From: Saprospiraceae bacterium
GTDB taxonomy: Bacteria > Bacteroidota > Bacteroidia > Chitinophagales > Saprospiraceae
NCBI GenBank assembly: GCA_027011385.1
Contig: JALVAD010000148.1
Coordinates: forward strand, 1 to 34,875
Direction: 5' to 3'
Length of the DNA: 34,875 nucleotides
In this document: positions 3,157 through 34,847 of the stretch, in pieces
Numbering within the stretch: the stretch's first letter is position 1
Layout of the letters: every line of letters begins with the position of its first letter
Notes under the pieces: model-generated
Told to the model about the DNA's origin: nothing
The model's input: only the letters and a program-made list of their open reading frames with translations
Databases searched by the model: none
Made by a program: the position numbers and the translations under genes

Positions 3157-3203
3157 ATGTGTATCAGACCCCATCCCCTGTAGTGATTGCCTTTTAAACT
3201 TAT

Positions 3204-3273
3204 GCAACTCTTTATAAATCAATAAACCTACTTAGCGCCACTTAGCGGTATCCTTAGCGTCCTCAGCGGGAAA
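3204..3273 (+). repeat. 70-bp interspersed repeat, family H5, copy a (gcaactctttataaatcaataa ... atccttagcgtcctcagcgggaaa)
   Basis: The first 22 bp and last 24 bp are identical to the copy at 8823-8892 and the total length is the same. The centre is a degenerate run of TTAGCG-like units. Confidence 0.8.
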
Positions 3274-3287
3274 CCAGTTGCAGATTA

Positions 3288-3326
3288 GAACCCATCCCCG
3301 ACCCTTCCATTAGCAAGGGAAGGGGG
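3288..3326 (+). repeat. GC-rich hairpin module, family H3 (gaacccatcccc leader plus cccttcc/ggaaggg stem)
   Basis: gaacccatccccgacccttccattagcaagggaaggggg. The same leader and stem recur at 8631, at 11465 (split by the MITE) and inside both MITE copies. Confidence 0.75.
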
Positions 3327-8581: not shown

Positions 8582-8630
8582 CACTTATTTATTAAATAAA
8601 AAATCTAGTTCGCACAATTAATTAAATCAG

Positions 8631-8747
8631 AACCTATCCCCGACCTTTCTTTTTCAATAAGCGAGGTCAGAGACACTCGCTTATCAGTAGAATTACAGAA
8701 GAAATGCGGGTTGTGGTTTTCCCGATTTCGGAATGCAATGGAGAAAC
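8631..8747 (+). repeat. Mosaic of palindromic modules: H3 leader (8631-8649), H1 (8657-8686), H2 (8701-8747)
   Basis: H1 is ataagcgag gtcagagaca ctcgcttat (9-bp stem). H2 is gaaatgcgggttgtggttttcccgatttcggaatgcaatggagaaac. The same H1-H2 pair recurs at 11282-11374, and as H2-H1 at 25805-25893. Confidence 0.8.
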
Positions 8748-8822
8748 GGGGAGTTAGAGGGCAGTTGTGCCAGAAAAAAAAGATAATGAGGAGTATCGCC
8801 AAGGATTGAGTTAGATAAACAG

Positions 8823-8892
8823 GCAACTCTTTATAAATCAATAACATTCCTTAGTACTACGTAGTGGCATCCTTAGCGTCCTCAGCGGGAAA
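8823..8892 (+). repeat. 70-bp interspersed repeat, family H5, copy b
   Basis: gcaactctttataaatcaataa ... atccttagcgtcctcagcgggaaa. The ends are identical to 3204-3273 and the centre is diverged. Confidence 0.8.
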
Positions 8893-10605: not shown

Positions 10606-11158
10606 AAAATTTATCTTTAGATAAAAGTAATTCTTTTAATTTTTTCCTAGCTTTAACCAAATTACTCCTTGAAGTACTTTCACTGATATTTAGTTTTTGA
10701 GCTATTTCTTTATGAGGGTATCCCTCTACGACAAACATATTAAAAATGGTTCTATAAATATAGGACAACTGATGCAATGCATTTAATATTTCCTCTACCG
10801 ATAAAGATTGGAGCGCACTAGCTTCTTTTGTTTTCAAATGGTAAACATTATCCAATTCAATAGTTTTCTTTTTAACCCTTTTTCTATAATGGTCAATTGA
10901 AGTATTTACAACGATTCTACTCATCCAACCTTTCAGAGATGTACCAGGTTTATATTTTCCAATATTTTTAAATATCTTAATAAAACTTTCGTGCAGAACA
11001 TCTTCTGCTTCCTCTTTTGTTCCCGCATACCTCAAACATATAGGCATAAGCACCTCGAAGTATTCTTCATACAGTTGTTTTTGAGCCCATCTTTTCTCCT
11101 TTAGGATACCTTCGATAAGTCCTTCTTCATTTCCCCATATTTTAAAAGAATAATCCAT
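10595..11158 (-). CDS. RNA polymerase ECF-type sigma-70 factor
   Basis: Region 2 (DVLHESFIKIF, GWMSRIVVNTSIDHYRK) and a region 4 HTH (GYPHKEIAQKLNISESTSRSNLVKARKKL). 187 aa. Confidence 0.9.
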   Translation of the reverse strand: MDYSFKIWGNEEGLIEGILKEKRWAQKQLYEEYFEVLMPICLRYAGTKEEAEDVLHESFIKIFKNIGKYKPGTSLKGWMSRIVVNTSIDHYRKRVKKKTIELDNVYHLKTKEASALQSLSVEEILNALHQLSYIYRTIFNMFVVEGYPHKEIAQKLNISESTSRSNLVKARKKLKELLLSKDKFYDQ

Positions 11159-11180
11159 GTTTTTTGTTTCTCTAATTCTT

Positions 11181-11188
11181 CAAACGTA
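11181..11188 (-). promoter_or_regulatory. Candidate -7 box TACGTTTG for the sigma operon
   Basis: Plus-strand caaacgta is TACGTTTG on the minus strand, 23 nt upstream of the ATG at 11158. Confidence 0.35.
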
Positions 11189-11281
11189 TATAAATATAAA
11201 ATGCTGCCTAAAATTACAATTATTTTCTGTTTTTTTTCAATTATCCTGTGTATCAGCACCGGAGTAGTACATTTTTGTAAG

Positions 11282-11374
11282 AAGCGAGGTCAGAGACACT
11301 CGCTTATCAAGCTAATTTTGAGGGAAATGCGGGTTATGGTTCTCTCTGTTTCGAAATCAGGGTTTTCGATTCCC
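11282..11374 (+). repeat. Mosaic of palindromic modules: H1 (11282-11309) and H2 (11324-11374)
   Basis: aagcgaggtcagagacactcgcttatca is identical to the 8659-8686 core. It is followed by gaaatgcgggttatggttctctctgtttcgaaat. Confidence 0.8.
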
Positions 11375-11496
11375 TTTACTACTACCATTTTGAACTCACA
11401 CTAATAAACCAAGAAAACAATTCCATCTGACAAAACCACTAAGTTTTTGATAATTTACATAAGAGAACCCATCCCCAAACCTTCCCTTTGTGAGGG

Positions 11497-11824
11497 CTTA
11501 CGTTATGACACATCTTTTAGCAAATATTTTTATTTAGAACCCACCTCAATCCTCCCTTACAAGGGAGGAAGCTGCAACCCCCTGTGAAATACTTCGTTGA
11601 TTTCACAGGGTAAACCGCAATAGCAACGCTTTTTTCACAAAAAAAATACCATTTAGTTATAAAACAAGATGATTCTCAAATAGCTATTTTTATTAATCAA
11701 GCACCTCCACTTCTCCCTTCCCTTTGTGAGGGAAGGGTTGGGGATGGGTGCTAAAACCGGAATCAAATCTCTCAAGAGAAAGCTATCGTTATCACACTTA
11801 TTAAAAGATGTGTCATAACGAAAG
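11497..11824 (+). mobile_element. MITE-like non-autonomous element, copy L (328 bp)
   Basis: Termini are cttacgttatgacacatctttta and taaaagatgtgtcataacgaaag; 22 of the 24 terminal positions are inverse-complementary. An identical 12-mer cctttgtgaggg abuts both ends (11485-11496 and 11825-11836). Removing the element restores an H3 hairpin. No credible ORF inside. The interior is about 97% identical, in inverted orientation, to 26023-26316. Confidence 0.75.
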
Positions 11825-12222
11825 CCTTTGTGAGGGAAGGGGCGTACCTGCTCTTAATCTGCAATATTTTCTCAGGCTTTTGCTTCTACGAGCCAAAGTT
11901 AGCTTTTTGGTTTTACTTTAACAAAGTCTCGAAGTACAGGCAAAGAAAAAATCAAATTTTTGTTAAAAATACAACTCTTTCTGTATTTCACCACAATGAT
12001 GAAAAAACGATGAAAAATTTTTTATTTTTTTTTCAATACCAATAAATGTATTTAATATTAGATTCCAAATCAAAACAGATTATATAAAAACATCATATCA
12101 CAACACATTAAAAATAAAGATAATATCAATATTTTTTTGGTATGTTTATTGAAAATATTGAAGTAATGAAAGAAGAATCATGGTGTATTGCCGTGATATA
12201 ATCTTATTATTAAAACAATAAT

Positions 12223-15200
12223 ATGAAATTAAATTTTAAGCTGATGAGAGAACCATTACAAGATGCTAAAAAGAGGTTATCCGGGGTTTACAAAAAACCT
12301 TTTATGACCGTTTTTGCCATTATTATTATGGCATTTAATTTGTCTGCCCAAGCTCCTAGCGGATCCGTGGTAGAAGATTGCACTTGCCTGAGCAATCAAA
12401 CACATTGTGGAGATGGACAGTATTCTACACTGCTGAGAATCGTGAACGGAGGACTTAACAATACTTGGTATGTCGCCGAAGATTCGATTCAAGGACTGTA
12501 TGATATCAATAGTCCTGCACCTCCGACACCACCGACTGAATTTGTAACCGGACCGGCAGGTGTAACAATGACAGATATGGGAGGCGAGACCTATGAGTTA
12601 ACTGCTATCCATGTTGATAGCCTCGGCTATTGGGTGAATTTAACTGACGGCACGGATACTGTCAAGCTGCTTGTTTCCCCTGGAACTTGCAAATACCCCC
12701 GGACTAAGATAGTCGGGGATCCTTTCGTTTGTGAAGGTCAAGTTTCTGACTATTCAACTGCTAATAATGCCACAAGCAATTATCTATGGACATTGAATAA
12801 TGATGGAACTCATGGTGGAACGATGACCTCTGCCAATACTGCCAATCCAATAACCATAGAATGGGATGATGATTCTGATGGCAAGTATCATCAAGTCAAA
12901 GTTCAAGAGACCGATGCAAATGGATGTGTAGTATCAGATTCAATGTTAGTTCAAATTGAGGATACCATAACCATGGCTTGTACACATGATGTACAAATAT
13001 CTTTGGATGCCAATTGTGCAGGAGCATTAACTGCTGACATGTTTCTAGAAGGTCAGGTCTATAATGATAGTTCTTATGCGATAATAATCCAAGATTCTAA
13101 TGGTAATCTTGTGAAGCAAGACACTTTAAGCAAAGATATGGTTAATAAGGTATACACAATTACCGTACAACATTTGTGCAGTGGCAATATGTGTTGGTCT
13201 TATATGCTTGTTCTTGACAAATCAGCACCGGATTTGAATTGTCATACAGATACAATAAAATGTTCAGATAGTGTAAAACCAGAAGATTTGGTTGATGGAT
13301 TCCCTCTATTGTACTATACTAATATACAAAAAACATCAAATCCTTTTAAATATATTGCAACAGGGACAAGCGGTTGTAGTGATGCGACTTTGGTATATAA
13401 TGATAAAGTTACTGAAGAGCCTTGTTCTTCTCCTTTCACTTCTACAATAATAAGAAAATGGAGAGTTAATGATGCTTCATTAAACTCAAGTGTTTGTATA
13501 GACACTATCAGAGTTGAAAGAACAGGATTGGCAGATATAAACTATCCTAAAAATTGGGATGGATTACCTTTTAACAATCCTTTCATTCAAGCTTGTAGCA
13601 AATATCCTACTGATGCAAATGGAAATCCTGATCCGAGCAAAACAGGTTCTCCCTCAGGTCCATTCTGTGGTAATCTGATGGTAAACTACTCAGATAAGAG
13701 GCTTTATTTATGTGACGATATTGGAGGCGAATCATATAAAGTCCTAAGAAATTGGACTGTAATGGATATGTGTACAGGAGATGCATTTGATACTCTTCAA
13801 ATCATTGCAATAATGGATACTCGTAAACCAACAATTTTAATACCCGGGCTTACAGGAGGCAATACATTTGTTGTAAACACTGAATATTATAACTGTGGTG
13901 CCAATGTCGAATTACCTGTAGCAACTGTTAGAGATTGTAGTATTGACAATCCACATGATTATACTGTTAGTTATCAACTAGCGGATGACGATGGGAATTA
14001 TCCTGACCCAACATTTCCATATACGACATTACATAAGGTAGGTGGAAAGTTTATATTACCAAATATTCCATATGGTTTTGCCAAAGTAAAATATACAGCT
14101 ACAGATCCTTGCGGCAATACAAAGGAAAGAATAATCTATGTAAAAGTGATAGATAACTTGCCTCCTCAAGCCGTTTGTGACAAGCATACAACTGTTACAT
14201 TAAGCGATTTGGGCATTGCATATTTAAGCAAATATTCATTTGATGACGGTTCATTTGACAATTGTTCTGATGTCACATTAGATGTAAGAAGAATGTCAGG
14301 AGTATGTGACCCATCCGATTTAATTTATGGTGAAGGGGTACATTTTTGTTGTATTGATTCAGGTCAAGACTCTGTTGGAGTAGAACTAAGAGTTACGGAT
14401 AGTAAGGGGTTTACAAATAGCTGTATGGCATGGGTTATAGTTAGTGATAATCAAAAACCGACAATTACTTGTCCTTCTAATGGTGAAGTAAGCTGTAAGT
14501 TTGATTACTCAGATTTATCAGTTTTCGGAACGATTAGAAATGACGAAAGTTTAGTTGAAAAAATATACATAAACGATCCTGAGCACGGTGGAAATCATCA
14601 TTACTTTGGCAAGGATGGATTTGCTACCGACAATTGTGATGTAACTGCCAAGATGATTTCAAAAACAGTATCAATCAATAATTGTGGAACTGGTGTTATA
14701 AGAAGAGTATTCCAAGCAACAGATAGTTATGGAAATAAATCAAATACTTGTACTCAGACTATTCAGGTAATAGATTTCAAGCCTTTTAATGCTAATAATC
14801 CGGCAGACTTAAGATGGCCTAATGATTATACATTCACCGGGTGTCTAGGAGAGAATATACTCCCTGACAATTTACCTGATGCTTATGGTTGGCCAAAAAT
14901 ACTGGGAGATGATAAATGCAGTACAATTGCAATGGACTATGACGACCTGATTTTTGAGCATGTAGAAGGAACTTGTTACAAGATAATAAGAACATGGAGA
15001 GTTGTAGATTGGTGCGTTTATGAACAAAACAAACCCGGAACACCATTGGGATATTGGGAACATGTACAAACTATAATGGTAACAGATGACACCAACCCAA
15101 CTGTGGAATCCGGATGTACTCCTGTTGACATTACTGCTTTGGGTAACTGTGATTATAGATACCACTTCAAAGCAATAGGTGATGATAACTGTACAGCCCC

Positions 15201-24713: not shown

Positions 24714-25682
24714 ATGAAAGCAATCGTATTAAAGAAAGAGAATACTCCTCCTGTTTATGAGGATTTCAAATTGGATGATAAAAAAGACGAGGTGAAGGTT
24801 AAATTATTAGCTTCTGCTATTAATCACAGGGATCTTTGGATAATCAAAGGTATGTATGCCGGCATCAAATATCCAATTATTCTAGGGTCAGATGGTCTTG
24901 GTCTTTTTGAAGGTAAAAAAGTCATAATCAATCCCGGGCAAAATTGGGGTAACGATGAAAATGTACAATCTTCTAAATTCAAAATATTGGGCTTACCTGA
25001 TCATGGCACTTTTGCAGAATTTGTATATACACCTAAGCAATATCTCTTCCCTGCCCCTGAGCATTTAACAGACTTTGAATCCGCTGCATTACCTCTTGGA
25101 GGACTAACAGCGTATAGAGCTCTATTTTCAAAAGCAAAAATAAAAAAGAATGAGAAGGTATTAATCGCAGGAATAGGAGGTGGAGTCGCTTTATTCGCAA
25201 TGCAATTTGCACTTGCGGCAGGATTGGAGGTATATGTAAGTTCAAGCAGTGATAAAAAAATCAAAAAAGCTGTAGATTTGGGTGCAAATGGTGGAATCAA
25301 TTACACAAAGAAAGATTGGCACAGAGAACTTAAAGCGATTTCAGGTGGAATTGATATAATAATAGATAGCGCAGCCGGCTCAGGGTTTAGTACTTATTTG
25401 AAATTGATTAATCCGGGAGGAAGAATCGTAGTTTACGGTGGTACAAGAGGAAATATACAGGATTTAAGCCCGCAGATATTGTTCTGGAAACAGATATCTA
25501 TATTGGGCTCTACGATGGGTTCCGACCGGGATTTTAGTGATATGTTGCAATTTGTAAATAAACACAAAATCAAACCTGTATTGGATTCACTTTATAAGCT
25601 AGAGGATTTCAATATTGCTATTAAGAGAATGGAAGAAGGAAAACAATTTGGTAAAATAGTGCTTAAAAACGTGTATACTTAG
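24714..25682 (+). CDS. Medium-chain dehydrogenase/reductase (quinone oxidoreductase / Zn-ADH family)
   Basis: GroES-like N-terminal domain, Rossmann motif AGIGGGVALFAMQFA, C-terminal GKIVL. Starts 3 nt after the upstream stop. Confidence 0.8.
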   Translation: MKAIVLKKENTPPVYEDFKLDDKKDEVKVKLLASAINHRDLWIIKGMYAGIKYPIILGSDGLGLFEGKKVIINPGQNWGNDENVQSSKFKILGLPDHGTFAEFVYTPKQYLFPAPEHLTDFESAALPLGGLTAYRALFSKAKIKKNEKVLIAGIGGGVALFAMQFALAAGLEVYVSSSSDKKIKKAVDLGANGGINYTKKDWHRELKAISGGIDIIIDSAAGSGFSTYLKLINPGGRIVVYGGTRGNIQDLSPQILFWKQISILGSTMGSDRDFSDMLQFVNKHKIKPVLDSLYKLEDFNIAIKRMEEGKQFGKIVLKNVYT

Positions 25683-25729
25683 TGTCTGGCACAACAGCCC
25701 CCTCTGCCATAACGCAAAAACACCTCTCT

Positions 25730-25787
25730 CCCCCTTGTAGTTTTGCTCCACTACGTTACGTAAAACTACAGGGGGAAGCAGCAACCC
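25730..25787 (+). repeat. GC-rich hairpin module, family H4
   Basis: cccccttgtagtttt (25730-25744) pairs with aaaactacaggggg (25762-25775), followed by an aagcagcaac tail. Confidence 0.65.
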
Positions 25788-25804
25788 GCGACTTCTTGGA
25801 CTGA

Positions 25805-25893
25805 GAATTGTAGGTTGGGGTTCTCCCGGTTTCGGAATAAAATGGAGAAACAGAGCTTGATATAAAAGCGAAGTCAGAGATATTCGCTTATCA
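25805..25893 (+). repeat. Mosaic of palindromic modules: H2 (25805-25851) then H1 (25866-25893)
   Basis: gaattgtaggttggggttctcccggtttcggaataaaatggagaaac, then aagcgaagtcagagatattcgcttatca. The module order is reversed relative to the 8.6 kb and 11.3 kb loci but the strand is the same. Confidence 0.8.
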
Positions 25894-26022
25894 GGGATAC
25901 AAAAAAAGCTTCACATGGAGATTGTTATATTTCCGATTTTGAAAGATACTGAATATCGAACACTGAATAAGGATTGGAGATTTTAGAAGGTTTGCAATGA
26001 GATTAGGAAACCTTTTGCGGGG
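25866..26022 (+). repeat. About 125-bp direct repeat unit (H1 + gggatac + 90-bp AT-rich segment), copy 1, carrying a 32-bp internal insertion (25901-25932)
   Basis: 25933-26022 and 26613-26702 differ at 2 positions in my manual alignment (ccgattttgaaagatactgaatatcgaacactgaataaggattggagattttagaaggtttgcaatgagattagga...). Confidence 0.85.
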
Positions 26023-26503
26023 CTTACGTTATGACACATCTTTTAATAAGTGTAATAACGATAGCTTTCTCTTGAGAGATTTGATTCCGGTTTTAGCACC
26101 CATCCCCAGCTCTTCCCTCACAAAGGGAAGGGAGAAGTGGAGGTGCTTGATTAATAAAAATAGCTATTTGAGAATCATCTTGTTTTATAACTAAATGGTA
26201 TTTTTTTTTGAAAAAAGCGTTGCTATTGCGGTTTACCCTGTGAAATCAACGAAGTATTTCACTGGGGGTTGCAGCTTCCTCCCTTGTAAGGGAGGATTGA
26301 GGTGGGTTCTAAATAAAAAATCATGCAAATATTATTACACAAATATGGAGTTTTAACGTATTTCACTTTATTTGTACCAAATATCTAACTTGTGTAGTTG
26401 CTATATATGTACAAAAACAGACAACTTTTGACCAAAATATAAATATAGCTTCCGTTATGATAAATCTTATTTTTTTTTGCTTTAAGATGTGTCATAACGA
26501 AAG
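26023..26503 (-). mobile_element. MITE-like non-autonomous element, copy R (481 bp), inverted relative to copy L
   Basis: Same termini (cttacgttatgacacatctttt ... aagatgtgtcataacgaaag). An identical 11-mer cttttgcgggg abuts both ends (26012-26022 and 26504-26514). 26023-26316 is the reverse complement of 11532-11824, with about 7-8 differences by eye. It carries about 155 bp more AT-rich sequence (about 26317-26475) than copy L. Confidence 0.75.
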
Positions 26504-26514
26504 CTTTTGCGGGG

Positions 26515-26737
26515 ATAGAGAGACATTCGCTTATCAGGAGAGTGTAAACGAAATCATAGACCTTTTGCAGGGAGATAAAGCGAAGTCAGCGATATTCGCT
26601 TATCAGGGATACCCGATTTTGAAAGATACTGAATATCGAACACTGAATAAGGATTGGAGATTTTAGAAGGTTTGCAATGAGATTAGGAGACCTTTTGCAG
26701 GGAGAAGGAAAGCGAAGTCAGAGACATTCGCTTATCA
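26515..26737 (+). repeat. Three further H1 palindromic units (26515-26536 5'-truncated, 26578-26605, 26710-26737), including copy 2 of the 125-bp unit (26578-26702)
   Basis: The core aagcgaagtcag[a/c]ga[c/t]attcgcttatca is repeated. Each unit is preceded by accttttgcaggga. Confidence 0.85.
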
Positions 26738-26845
26738 AGGACAAAGAATCGAAGATTTTAATTTTATCTACTAATAGTGTTTAAAAAAAACTTTATTGAA
26801 ACTAATACGTTAAAATCTTACACCACATAATAAATATATCACTAA

Positions 26846-31597: not shown

Positions 31598-31610
31598 TAT
31601 AGTATTCTTT

Positions 31611-31889
31611 TATGTGGTTTCAGTTTTTATTTGTTTCAGGTTTCAGGTTTTATTTGTTCCATGTTCCAATTTTTTTTGTTTCAGGTTTCAGGTTTTTTTG
31701 AACTTTGAACATTGAACTTTGAACCTTGAACATTGAACCTTTGAACCTTGAACCTTGAACCTTGAACATGAAACATTGAACTTTGAACATTGAACTTTGA
31801 ACCTTGAACCTTGAACCTTGAACATGAAACATTGAACCTTGAACCTTGAACATGAAACATTGAACATAGAACATGAAACATTGAACCTT
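31611..31889. repeat. Bipartite heptanucleotide microsatellite: T-rich GTTTCAG tract (31611-31699) plus 27 tandem GAACNTT units (31700-31889)
   Basis: I parsed the units by hand (GAACCTT, GAACATT, GAACTTT, GAACATG-AAACATT), with one 8-mer. There is a higher-order repeat of 78 and 56 bp. The last unit overlaps the HAD stop codon (31888-31890). Confidence 0.9.
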
Positions 31890-32304
31890 ATTTCCCAAAC
31901 AATTTACCGATTACTCCTTTTTTCTTTTGAAACATCTTCTGAACCGTCTCAACATCCTCACCATTTAAAATCTGATATATCCTACCCCATCCTATGAAAC
32001 CACCTATATTTCGATCATCTATAAAAATATCTGCTTTAAGTTTTCTTGGCACATCCGGAGTATAATCTTCTTCAACAAAATTTTTATTTACAGCATAAAA
32101 CTCAATTCCGTTTTTCTTACAAAACTCAACTGCTTCATCTAGTCTTTTACCCTTTCTATATGTCCATAAAACAAGTCTATGTCCATCCTCTTGCATCTTT
32201 TTCATAGTTTCAAATGCAAATATTAGCGGTTTACCAATATCAGGATATTTATCCTCTACTATAGTACCATCAAAGTCTATTGCTATAAGTTTACTACTGT
32301 TCAT
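31888..32304 (-). CDS. Small HAD-superfamily phosphatase-like protein
   Basis: IAIDFDGTIV (DxDGT motif I), VLWTYR (motif II-like), IFIDDRN (motif IV). 138 aa. Confidence 0.65.
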   Translation of the reverse strand: MNSSKLIAIDFDGTIVEDKYPDIGKPLIFAFETMKKMQEDGHRLVLWTYRKGKRLDEAVEFCKKNGIEFYAVNKNFVEEDYTPDVPRKLKADIFIDDRNIGGFIGWGRIYQILNGEDVETVQKMFQKKKGVIGKLFGK

Positions 32305-32465
32305 TTATTTCTTATCTGTGTTCTTTTGTTTCATTTTGTTTGTTTCAGGTTATTTTGTTTCAAGTTAATTTGTTTCAGGTTTTAAGTTTAAATTGAACAT
32401 GGAACTTTGAACCTTGAACATGAAACATAAAACCTTATACATGGAACATGAGACCTTAAACATTA
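32305..32465. repeat. Second bipartite heptamer element: GTTTCA(G/A) tract (32305-32394) plus about 10 degenerate GAACNTT units (32395-32464)
   Basis: Same two-part layout and orientation as 31611-31889. The last unit overlaps the Wzc stop codon (32463-32465). Confidence 0.85.
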
Positions 32466-34847
32466 AAAGAATCGCCACCAAGGTTTCTTCTTCTCCTGTC
32501 CATAGCCATAACCATATCCGTAGCCATATCCGTAGCCGTAGCCATAGCCTTTCTTGATATCGGATCCATTCAATAGTATTCCCATATTCGGTAATCTATT
32601 TTCTTTATAAAGAGAGTCCGGAACATTCAGCATACGCTTATCTAAGTATCCTGCTTTAGTAACAAATATGGTCATATCTGCGTATTCGCTTAGCAACAAG
32701 GTATCAGTAACCATTCCTGTCGGGGCAGTGTCAACAATGATATAATCATAAAATGGTTTTAGCTCATCAAACAGTTGTTTTACACTACTACGCATAAGGA
32801 TCTCTGATGGATTGGGGGGGATATCACCTGAAGGCAACACATGCATATTTGGTATTTCTTTCAATTTAATTATAGCTTGATTAATATCATAATCAGTATC
32901 GATCAAATAATTTGTAACCCCTTTGTCTCCTTCAATTCCTAAATATTGTATAACTTTAGGTACTCTTAAGTCCATTCCTATCAACAGAACCTTTTTACCG
33001 GAAATCGCCAGCGATGCGGCAAGGTTAATAGCTACAAATGTTTTTCCTTCCTTATTAATCGTGGAAGTAACTAAGATAGTTTTTGCTTTATCGTGCTCTC
33101 CTTTTAGCATAAAGCCAATATTAGTTCTTAGCAGTCTAAAAGCCTCTGACACATTCGTGTTTTTCTCTAATGCTACTAAATACTTGTTCTCTTTTACCTC
33201 CGGTATAGAACCAAGAAACGGTACTGCAATTTTTTCCAAATCCTTTTTAGTATGCACTTTTACATCCAATAAATCCTTTAAATAAAGAAGAAGTATTGGA
33301 AATAACAGTCCAAGTAGCAAGCCAATGATATATATAATTTTCTTCTTGGGACTTATGGGCAACCCGGAATCATACGCAGGATCTAATATCTTGGAATTTG
33401 ATACTGTTACTGCTTTAGCGATAGCTGTTTCCTCTCTTTTCTGTAATAAGTACAAGTAGAGATTTTCTATAATTTTTCTTCTCCTTTCTATTACAAGAAA
33501 TCTTCTCTCTTGTTTTGGAATGGCTTTGATACGGGATTTGAAACGATTGGCATCCTTCTCAAGATCTGCTATATTTATTTCAATAGAGTTTTTAATATTA
33601 TCCAAACTTTGCTTCAAGCTCTCTCGCATATTGACAATTTGCTCCTCAAAATTAAGAAATACAGGACTTTTCTTCGTAGATGACTTAAGGACTCTATTTC
33701 TTTGCAACACGAGTTTGTTATAGCTATTAATCGAAGATTCAACAGAAGAATAGGTGATTCCTAGATTAGCAGGAATCAAACTTGAATTATCCTTTTGGTT
33801 TTTTAAATAATCAATGATATATTCAACAAGATTCAATTGAGTATTGAGTTCACTCAATTTTTTTGTGGACTCCGCCATATTATTTAGAAAAATATTCGAT
33901 TCGGAAGCTAAATCTGTTAGACTATTTGAACTCTTAAAATGCTCAACATTACCATCCAATTTATCCAATTCTTCTTTGATTAATACTAATCTATCATTTA
34001 TAAAATCAAGAGTATTTTTTGATACTTTATTTTTATCTTCTATTGCATCCATTTTATGTTCCGCTAACAGGGTATTTAATATATCCACTGCTCTCTTTCT
34101 ATTGGAATCCTTTATACTCAGATTTAACACTTTTGATAACTGACTAGCCCTTTCAATATTAATTCTGGATTTCAGGCTATTCACAACAGACTCTACCGGC
34201 TTAATAACAATTTTTATTTCTTTGTTAATAAAACCACTTATTTTTTTATTTGGTACAAACACTACATCCCCGAATGACAGCTTTACTCTTTCTCCAAAAC
34301 CAGCATGCAAAAATACTGAATCTGTCTTTGTCATCAAGTCAAATGAAGATTCAGAAACAATCTTCATTTTAAAAACAGTATCAACTCTATCAAATAATGA
34401 ATCACCTATAAAATAATCCATTTTTACCGGTGAGTCTATGTACATATCTTCTTCTCTTAATTTCAGATATTTCCTTAGTGTACCCAAATTTTTATAAGAT
34501 ATATTAATTTTTAGATCTTTGACTACCCTAGTTAACAAAATAGAAGATTTCAATATATAAATATGATTTTCAGAGTTGTCTCCAAGTTTTGGTATTACTC
34601 CCAAATCTTGAAAAGCCGAAACTTCTGTTCCCATACCATCGGCATCTTGAACTTTTATCAATACAGATGCATTTACTTGATAAATAGGTGTAGTATACCT
34701 TAAGTACATAAAAGTTCCTATCAGAAAAACTATCAAACTTAGCACAAACCATGGCCAATATCTCAAGTATTTTTCGATTAACTCTCTTATATTTATCTCT
34801 TCCTCCATACTCTCTTCCAGAGGATTTTTACCAATCTCAAATTCCAT
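32463..34847 (-). CDS. wzc: Polysaccharide co-polymerase / BY-kinase (Wzc/GumC type) with a C-terminal (GY)n tyrosine cluster
   Basis: N-terminal Wzz-like domain with TM helix WPWFVLSLIVFLIGTFMYL and a coiled-coil periplasmic region, then a second TM. Walker A VTSTINKEGKT, Walker A'/B (IIVDTAP), and the tail GYGYGYGYGYGYGYGYG. Confidence 0.85.
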   Translation of the reverse strand: MEFEIGKNPLEESMEEEINIRELIEKYLRYWPWFVLSLIVFLIGTFMYLRYTTPIYQVNASVLIKVQDADGMGTEVSAFQDLGVIPKLGDNSENHIYILKSSILLTRVVKDLKINISYKNLGTLRKYLKLREEDMYIDSPVKMDYFIGDSLFDRVDTVFKMKIVSESSFDLMTKTDSVFLHAGFGERVKLSFGDVVFVPNKKISGFINKEIKIVIKPVESVVNSLKSRINIERASQLSKVLNLSIKDSNRKRAVDILNTLLAEHKMDAIEDKNKVSKNTLDFINDRLVLIKEELDKLDGNVEHFKSSNSLTDLASESNIFLNNMAESTKKLSELNTQLNLVEYIIDYLKNQKDNSSLIPANLGITYSSVESSINSYNKLVLQRNRVLKSSTKKSPVFLNFEEQIVNMRESLKQSLDNIKNSIEINIADLEKDANRFKSRIKAIPKQERRFLVIERRRKIIENLYLYLLQKREETAIAKAVTVSNSKILDPAYDSGLPISPKKKIIYIIGLLLGLLFPILLLYLKDLLDVKVHTKKDLEKIAVPFLGSIPEVKENKYLVALEKNTNVSEAFRLLRTNIGFMLKGEHDKAKTILVTSTINKEGKTFVAINLAASLAISGKKVLLIGMDLRVPKVIQYLGIEGDKGVTNYLIDTDYDINQAIIKLKEIPNMHVLPSGDIPPNPSEILMRSSVKQLFDELKPFYDYIIVDTAPTGMVTDTLLLSEYADMTIFVTKAGYLDKRMLNVPDSLYKENRLPNMGILLNGSDIKKGYGYGYGYGYGYGYGYGQEKKKPWWRFF

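Follow-up and report, generated by a model that had tools for sequence, protein, structure and literature searches.

The subject of this study is a 328-bp non-coding element at positions 11497-11824 of the window, by which we mean the whole 34,875-nucleotide stretch of Saprospiraceae DNA that was analyzed. The element lies in a 1064-bp divergent intergenic region between a gene for an extracytoplasmic function (ECF) sigma factor, whose nearest named relatives are from Saprospiraceae, and a 1582-aa gene of the type IX secretion system (T9SS)-cargo type. A preliminary description of this DNA had proposed an element like a MITE (miniature inverted-repeat transposable element), bounded by terminal inverted repeats (TIRs) and a 12-bp flanking duplication and seated in the loop of a GC-rich hairpin termed H3; its coordinates and the features that it listed all proved correct. 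It had also seen no coding capacity, and we found that only open reading frames (ORFs) of 40 and 46 aa overlap the element, hereafter copy 1. The features on which the argument rests are as follows.

11497-11824, minus strand: MITE copy 1, 328 bp, short variant (strand relative to the family alignment, in which end A, ..AATAAGTGTGATAACG, comes first)
11497-11519, plus strand: terminal inverted repeat, end B, CTTACGTTATGACACATCTTTTA
11802-11824, minus strand: terminal inverted repeat, end A, CTTTCGTTATGACACATCTTTTA on the minus strand and TAAAAGATGTGTCATAACGAAAG as read at the right end
11485-11496, strand not assigned: left 12-bp target-site duplication of copy 1, CCTTTGTGAGGG
11825-11836, strand not assigned: right 12-bp target-site duplication of copy 1
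11464-11496, plus strand: left half of the interrupted target hairpin (the H3 of the preliminary description), agaacccatccccaaaccttccc and loop, of the same repeat family as 3278-3326
11825-11842, plus strand: right half of the interrupted target hairpin, loop and gggaagggg
11537-11581, plus strand: internal GC-rich hairpin unit of H3-like build, gaacccacctcaatCCTCCCttacaaGGGAGGaagctgcaaccc
11580-11615, minus strand: internal hairpin module of about 36 bp, GTTTACCCTGTGAAATCAACGAAGTATTTCACAGG, found in some family members and not in others
11711-11752, minus strand: internal H3-type hairpin, CCCTTCCC tttgtga GGGAAGGG plus ttggggatgggtgc, holding the preferred target and a third copy of the 12-mer
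3278-3326, plus strand: intact, unoccupied free-standing H3 hairpin unit

The inverted termini are present as described, except that our count gives arms of 23 nt with 22 of 23 positions complementary, in place of 22 of 24; a repeat finder stretches the arms to 25 nt at 96%, because the palindromic target contributes a GG/CC pair. The 22-mer terminus occurs four times within the window, against 0.00 expected from shuffles. Next to each terminus comes a degenerate inverted copy of the TIR core (window 26449-26471 with 26481-26503; 11786-11824; and all aligned long copies), such as CTTCCGTTATGATAAATCTTA opposite the TIR of end B and AAGTGTGATAACG opposite that of end A, so that each end forms a small palindrome.

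The perfect 12-mer that flanks copy 1 on both sides corresponds to the loop and stem top of the GC-rich hairpin. As predicted, deletion of copy 1 together with one 12-mer restores gaacccatccccaaaccttccctttgtgagggaagggg, a repeat of the type at 3288-3326, i.e., the hairpin ccttccc-tttgtga-gggaagg with gaacccatcccc ahead of it. Several such H3 units, free-standing as well as MITE-internal, have ACCCATCCCC-RA-CCCTTCCC-loop-GGGAAGGG in common. A third copy of the 12-mer, overlooked until now, lies within copy 1 at 11721-11732, in the internal hairpin of the same type. We also observed that the loop of the interrupted hairpin, TTTGTGA (11487-11493, taken with ACCCATCCCC upstream), and that of the MITE-internal hairpins taken in the same direction, TCACAAA (11723-11729 and 26118-26124), are reverse complements of each other, the 7-nt loop thus being inverted relative to its asymmetric flanks in comparison with the MITE-internal hairpins.

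The preliminary description had missed a second copy in the window, which is longer and in the opposite orientation.

26023-26503, plus strand: MITE copy 2, 481 bp, long variant
26012-26022, strand not assigned: left 11-bp target-site duplication of copy 2, CTTTTGCGGGG
26504-26514, strand not assigned: right 11-bp target-site duplication of copy 2
26613-26750, plus strand: uninterrupted paralogue of the repeat unit broken by copy 2 (..GGAGACCTTTTGCAGGGAGA..), a paralogous empty site

Over 298 bp, copy 2 matches copy 1 at 98% identity, and it carries an extra segment of about 150 bp adjoining end B. It breaks a repeat unit of about 130 bp, an intact paralogue of which lies 680 bp downstream, and the two align over the junction after in silico excision. 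Since its 11-bp duplication differs from that of copy 1, the flanking repeat is made where the element inserts and does not belong to the element itself. A small hairpin repeat, AAGCGAAGTCAGAGAYATTCGCTTATCAGG (stem AAGCGA/TCGCTT), recurs in five to six copies in the window (8658-8693, 11281-11316, 25865-25900, 26577-26612, and 26709-26744) and, around 25865-26750, forms part of the tandem ~130-bp unit that copy 2 interrupts.

Beyond the window, we scanned one genome per GTDB species with CTTWCGTTATGACACATCT T, a 20-mer from the terminus, and obtained 21 loci, 20 of them from three Saprospiraceae metagenome-assembled genomes (MAGs) and one a 1.5-kb contig binned elsewhere; by MAG, at least 12 loci fell in JALVEE, 8 in JALVEG, and 1 in JALVEF, to which the two copies in the window are added. 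Complete copies of 342-497 bp are present at eight loci, which gives the family a size range of 328-497 bp, and the remaining loci are cut by contig ends, as is expected of repeats, or are, in a few cases, solo or truncated ends (L022, L020, and L021). The terminus is preserved in every copy. The copies are 97-99% identical between loci, which suggests that they spread recently. The window's MITE locus itself recurs, with a single mismatch, in the metagenome assembly ERZ27262679 (L001).

The preliminary description had named as contrary outcomes that every copy would carry the same 12-mer or that other copies and empty-site alleles would both be lacking altogether. Many copies were found in related MAGs, and the duplications vary by site: perfect ones measure 12, 11, 12, and 10 bp, those with one or two mismatches 10, 12, 10, 11, and 11 bp, and their sequences all differ (e.g., CTTTTGCGGGG at copy 2, CCCTTAGCAAGG, CTTCAGGGAT in L013, and CCCTAAATCC in L017). 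The 12-mer is therefore a target-site duplication and not a subterminal repeat, and an uncertainty of 1-2 bp in its length was fairly allowed for, given the range of 10-12 bp over the copies.

Alignment of 10 complete copies resolves a common architecture, composed of TIR-A with its degenerate inverted copy, an H3-type hairpin, an AT-rich stretch, an optional hairpin module of 36-52 bp, a second H3-like hairpin, an optional segment of about 150 bp that ends in a degenerate inverted TIR copy, and finally TIR-B; copy 1 is the short form, devoid of the ~150-bp segment. The 36-52-bp module (GTTTACCCCGTGAAA..TTTCACNGGGG) is cleanly present or absent at one position of the MITE (GCTATTGC|GGGTTGCAGC); it is found at window 11580-11615 and 26231-26266 and at L019:6283, L020:6694, L005:1710, L011:4263, L004:7835, and L007:805. 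Elsewhere it occurs in either orientation between an H3-unit stem and a GGGATGGGT flank, a distribution that suggests a component of a mosaic of the bacterial interspersed mosaic element (BIME) type or a very small mobile hairpin.

One genome hit, L003, showed the terminus followed by unrelated sequence that reads as the C-terminus of a protein, and a metagenome scan with this junction yielded L023, in which positions 1076-2593 form an autonomous element of 1518 bp that is bounded on either side by CTTACGTTATGACACAT and contains a single long ORF. A longer, transposase-encoding element with the same termini, which the preliminary description had recommended searching for, thus exists (L023, L026, and L027), its first 17-23 nt being identical to those of the MITE, and the termini, then assigned to no named family, are now placed in the IS4 family of insertion sequences (ISs). 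The ORF of L023 matches NCBIfam NF033590, "IS4 family transposase," with 262 bits (cut-off 160) as well as Pfam DDE_Tnp_1 (PF01609), and shows, in ..CYVERWKVEEFFKLLK.., Y-(2)-R-(3)-E-(6)-K, which PMC2266710 defines as the IS4-family signature. P0024, an in-frame relative that is 51% identical to the L023 transposase, matched Tn5 transposase structures over about 400 residues (E=4e-25), the only family matched in the PDB search, and in-frame relatives carry PF14706, the Tn5-type N-terminal DNA-binding domain. Because the best annotated plasmid match, ISSysp3, is only 31.6% identical, we regard the IS as unnamed. Its transposase is 100% identical in three independent assemblies (L023, L026, and L027), and ERZ27262679 contains both the L026 contig and the MITE locus of the window. 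In L025, a contig of 72 kb, there is a 65%-identical IS whose ends are CTGTCGTTATGACACATCT and which is bordered by a 10-bp duplication without mismatches, GGCTTTGGCC; the duplications of 10 bp at L025 and 10-12 bp at the MITEs agree with the "about 10 bp" given for the IS4 family (PMC2266710). The IS ends are without the small palindrome that MITE ends show.

Three candidate readings of these loci were discarded along the way. The MITE is not an internal-deletion derivative of the IS, since similarity stops after about 17-25 bp per end; L023 was not taken as proof of a duplication flanking the IS, as both of its flanks are H3 loops but different ones, and it was treated as chimeric or recombinant; and L022, a solo end beside OmpH-like genes, is not an IS.

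In size, TIRs, variable duplications, copies, and matching IS, the element conforms to the usual definition of a MITE. We consider it very probable, judging from sequence comparisons, that 11497-11824 belongs to a multicopy Saprospiraceae MITE family mobilized in trans by the 1.5-kb Tn5-like IS of the IS4 family, which bears out the earlier view of a non-autonomous element and supplies it with a DDE transposase partner encoded elsewhere. By analogy with Tn5, IS10, and IS231, the transposase would bind the ends of about 19-23 bp, excise the MITE by cut-and-paste, and integrate it with cuts staggered by 10-12 bp, the repair of the gaps yielding the flanking duplication. We infer both that the partner transposase acts on the MITE ends and that it is currently active.

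Several observations weigh against this interpretation. The similarity between MITE and IS is limited to the terminal ~17-25 bp per end, with none internally, so that their pairing rests on termini and co-occurrence, and no IS copy lies within the window itself. The full-length transposase requires a -1 frameshift, and the activity of the partner is therefore not guaranteed. The flanks of L023 and L006 do not match each other, which would fit a chimeric metagenome assembly over the repeat or recombination between copies, neither being proven. Finally, of the empty sites proposed as a test, unoccupied paralogues were found (3288-3326 and 26690-26750), but a base-precise orthologous empty allele was not recovered in two related strains. 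Orthologues of the sigma gene at L028 (96%) and L031 (88%) keep their synteny with the large T9SS-type gene and are free of the MITE; these are not base-precise empty sites because the hairpin and the neighboring modules are gone too, the intergenic core having been replaced or lost.

The intergenic region is hypervariable (11159-12222 compared with L028:1-965 and L031:2070-2500), with 1064 bp here, about 860 bp in the 96% relative, where the repeat modules are largely different, and 431 bp in the 88% relative; the gene-proximal ~100-350 bp alone are conserved. Judged from these alignments, the spacer between the ECF sigma and T9SS-type genes is one that turns over rapidly. For copy 2, a search with exact matches to both flanking proteins found no empty site; all that it recovered was the same strain (L042, from GCA_026991075.1, to which part of the window is 100% identical) or contigs joined in assembly by way of the repeat, and L040 stops inside the MITE. 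L041 (ERZ27262679 k141_191169), compared with window 25600-26363, follows MITE copy 2 without the 31 bp at 26232-26262 and then passes into a different locus with a mechanosensitive (MS)-channel gene, like that beside the truncated MITE of L020; two MITE copies were most likely joined here in assembly, and the contig was not used as evidence. Such a join calls for caution about MAG contiguity in these genomes.

To characterize target choice, 35 outward flanks were aligned at the junction. The resulting logo has C at -12 to -10, T at -9/-8, A at -4/-3, and G at -2/-1, i.e., a symmetric consensus CC(C)TT-N3-4-AAGG(G) that covers the duplicated bases. A simple form of the consensus (CCx..GG) fits 14 of 33 ends compared with 0.32% of background positions (P~1e-26), and an H3-type stem lies within 17 nt at 16 of 33 ends versus 1.4% of background (P~1e-21); the paired ends of one element are non-independent, but the enrichment is far too large for this to matter. 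At H3 sites, the duplication comprises the 7-nt loop and 1-3 bp of each stem arm, integration being centered on the dyad, and each of the four close IS copies has H3-type flanks. Another recurrent target, CACCTCCTTTAGGAGG, also a small palindrome or hairpin, was used in L020 and L024 and is intact in L028. Sites without an extended stem (window copy 2, L011, L013, L017, and L019) keep the CC(C)...GG(G) clamp within their 10-12 bp.

These data bear on whether the transposase of this mobile family recognizes DNA structure, such as an extruded hairpin, a cruciform, or a single-stranded hairpin, instead of palindromic sequence. Hairpins with GC stems of 7-8 bp, hit at the dyad, hold about half of the insertion sites and each of the four close IS copies, and CACCTCCTTTAGGAGG is a hairpin as well, as recognition of structure would have it; that reading explains the hairpin sites only, however, and leaves unaccounted for the stemless sites, which retain the clamp alone in the manner of Tn5, whose symmetric preference is for palindromic sites with G/C pairs at the duplication ends (PMC1525189). 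Because one consensus covers both stem and stemless sites, we favor a transposase that would read a GC-clamped palindromic sequence, and we regard recognition of structure as rather unlikely. Target choice is nonrandom: integration centers on the palindrome CC(C)TT-N3-4-AAGG(G), which the loop and stem top of H3 (CCCTTCCC-loop-GGGAAGGG) match well, so that the element lands symmetrically in the loop.

The H3 hairpin inside the MITE shares its loop with the interrupted one, and hairpins matching that of copy 1 (11711-11752) served as target in L010, L024, and L027. In L010, a second MITE sits within the internal H3 loop of a first one, at the position (…cccttccctcacaaagg|CTTTCG…) that copy 1 takes in its own hairpin, and the flanks of the IS copies in L024 and L027 are of the kind seen in MITE-internal H3 hairpins (…cacctccacttctcccttccc…). 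As it contains the H3 target, the MITE, in spreading, multiplies the sites at which it and its partner IS can land, hence the nested insertions.

All six distinct elements that were examined (L023, L026, and L027 counted as one IS), down to 49% protein identity, have a split transposase gene: an ORF of 21-33 codons ending in ..DKRLEK(R/K)G comes first, and the remaining protein follows in the -1 frame. The change of frame falls within an A6G5, A8G3, or A5G5 run (GGAAAAAAGGGGGC, GGAAAAAAAAGGGC, or GCAAAAAGGGGGC), the A8G3 form including the canonical A-AAA-AAA heptamer.

L023:2440-2480, minus strand: conserved -1 frameshift site, also in L024, L025, L026, L027, L034, L035, and L036, just upstream of the called transposase genes

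In-frame relatives, including P0024 and P0029, read ..DKRLEKRQTILE.. or ..DKRLQKRGLQLEE.. over the junction, the trans-frame peptide predicted at the frameshift is ..DKRLEKKGASLES.. or ..DKRLEKRGASLES.., and many database transposase proteins begin just past the junction. As the protein is conserved on either side of the junction in independent assemblies, a sequencing error or decay is argued against. No conserved or unusually stable fold was detected 3' of the site (z -0.5 to +0.8) as a stimulatory RNA structure, and unstimulated ribosomal slippage or transcriptional slippage is a possible route. The partner IS departs here from the IS4 family, for which PMC2266710 names "absence of frameshift" as a hallmark; if this is a true recoding site, it would revise that textbook hallmark.

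The same split gene is an argument for an extinct family, the copies being fossils of past activity or duplication that nothing now mobilizes: the frameshift breaks the transposase ORF in every close copy, there are solo and truncated ends (L022, L020, and L021), and some duplications carry one or two mismatches. We hold such a relic to be unlikely, as the conservation of the site, with protein on both sides to 49% identity, speaks for a recoding site under selection rather than for decay, and as the copies are 97-99% identical between loci and the IS transposase 100% identical in three independent assemblies.

Much less credible still is that each of the two 12-mers is the loop of an H3 hairpin of its own and that the "element" is a spacer placed between them by recombination of hairpin repeats. 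Such an origin would accommodate the third 12-mer in the internal hairpin (11721-11732), the mosaic of small repeats in the region, and the mismatched flanks of L023 and L006, but it is largely refuted by the site-specific duplications, which are equally clean in non-H3 contexts (CTTTTGCGGGG at copy 2, CTTCAGGGAT in L013, and CCCTAAATCC in L017) and always adjoin the same inverted termini; moreover, the stem that flanks copy 1 is that of a single hairpin. That the element is a structured regulatory RNA or a protein-binding module of the divergent ECF-sigma/T9SS-cargo promoter region, as its place in the 1064-bp intergenic region and its three stable hairpins might hint, is just as improbable, given that a scan of 11100-12300 gave no Rfam match at E<=1, that promoter-like sites are not in excess (6 versus 4.9 expected from shuffles) and no terminators were predicted, that the internal modules come and go, and that copies lie beside unrelated genes in either orientation and are missing from the orthologous regions of relatives.

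Other repeats were recorded elsewhere in the window. Arrays of a 7-nt periodic repeat (TTGAACN/GTTTCAG variants) at 31600-31915 and 32312-32481 flank a 138-aa ORF (31888-32304), and an 84-bp unit at 2195-2383 is repeated 2.25 times in tandem with 98-100% identity. An 89-nt dispersed repeat with reiterated CTTAGCG/CTCAGCG motifs is present at 3185-3273 and 8804-8892 (79% identity), the former copy directly upstream of the intact H3 unit at 3278-3326 and the latter about 140 bp downstream of a degenerate unit at 8620-8661.

Returning to the MITE and its partner, we offer as a tentative possibility that hairpin, MITE, and IS constitute one self-reinforcing system. A Tn5-like transposase would be tuned to the loop of a hairpin akin to repetitive extragenic palindromic (REP) elements, possibly as a structure, the MITE would multiply harmless landing pads into nested arrays, and the transposase would be throttled by -1 recoding, with mostly an N-terminally truncated protein similar to the Tn5 inhibitor being made and the full-length protein only rarely. 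If this is true, the frameshift would be the first recoding site of such a kind in the IS4 family.

More immediately, the MITE family accounts for a repeated intergenic sequence of about 330-500 bp in Saprospiraceae genomes and MAGs and for the contig breaks that it causes, and ties it to a Tn5-like IS that had no name before. With it, Bacteroidota gain a case in which an IS4-family element and its MITE home to GC-rich extragenic hairpins, the MITE carrying its own target, and the family is a simple natural setting in which to ask whether palindromic sequence or DNA structure is read by Tn5-like transposases. In kind, it is ordinary, a new family of a known type of element; its particulars are the Bacteroidota host, the CCC…GGG clamp, and the self-carried target.

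A close parallel is IS231 of the Bacillus cereus group with its non-autonomous relatives (MIC231, or IS231-MITEs), where, as proposed here, short elements that retain only the IS ends are served in trans by a DDE transposase of the IS4 family. IS231A reportedly generates duplications that vary from 10 to 12 bp in a GC-clamped palindromic target, GGG(N)5CCC (Hallet et al. 1994). The Saprospiraceae family differs in its host, a member of Bacteroidota and not of Bacillota, in a transposase of the Tn5-like branch that is not IS231-like, in its clamp, CCC...GGG instead of GGG...CCC, and in a MITE with its own target hairpin. Papers on MIC231 and on modular IS231-MIC231 elements appear in the reference list of PMC2266710, which gives duplications of ~10 bp for the IS4 family.

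A preference for short GC-rich extragenic palindromes, sometimes exclusive, is also shared with REP-targeting ISs (ISRm22; IS1397 and ISKpn1 of the IS3 family; and ISPpu9, ISPpu10, ISPa11, and IS621 of the IS110 family). Preference for REP-type palindromes has been established for members of the IS3, IS110, IS4 (ISRm22), IS256, and IS5 families, and all 10 of the 10 copies of ISRm22 lie in REP elements, which was related to the palindromic, GC-ended preference of Tn5 (PMC1525189). In contrast to these ISs, the preference here is strong and not exclusive (about half of the MITE sites), the inserter is mostly the MITE, the target repeat is also inside the MITE and leads to self-nesting, and the hairpin family is that of Saprospiraceae.

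With IS50/Tn5, the partner IS shares a transposase homologous over about 400 residues (E=4e-25) and the YREK motif. The end CTGTCTCTTATACACATCT is identical at 12 of 19 positions, including the last 8, to the 19-bp mosaic end of Tn5, CTTACGTTATGACACATCT, and the L025 end CTGTCGTTATGACACATCT at 14 of 19. Without its N-terminus, the product would be similar to the Tn5 inhibitor protein (PDB 1b7e, among the structures matched by P0024). Tn5 duplicates 9 bp of its target, whereas the duplications here are of 10-12 bp, the identity to named IS4 elements is about 30%, and a conserved -1 frameshift splits the gene. Finally, the MITE interior and its surroundings are made of small GC-rich hairpin modules in varied combinations, orientations, and positions, as in the BIMEs of E. 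coli and in cyanobacterial repeats, for which Elhai et al. are said to have described, in 2008, small dispersed repeats with very small hairpin repeats nested in MITEs; compared with BIMEs, the modules of the Saprospiraceae family measure about 36-52 bp and have a consensus of their own, GTTTACCCCGTGAAA..TTTCACNGGGG.

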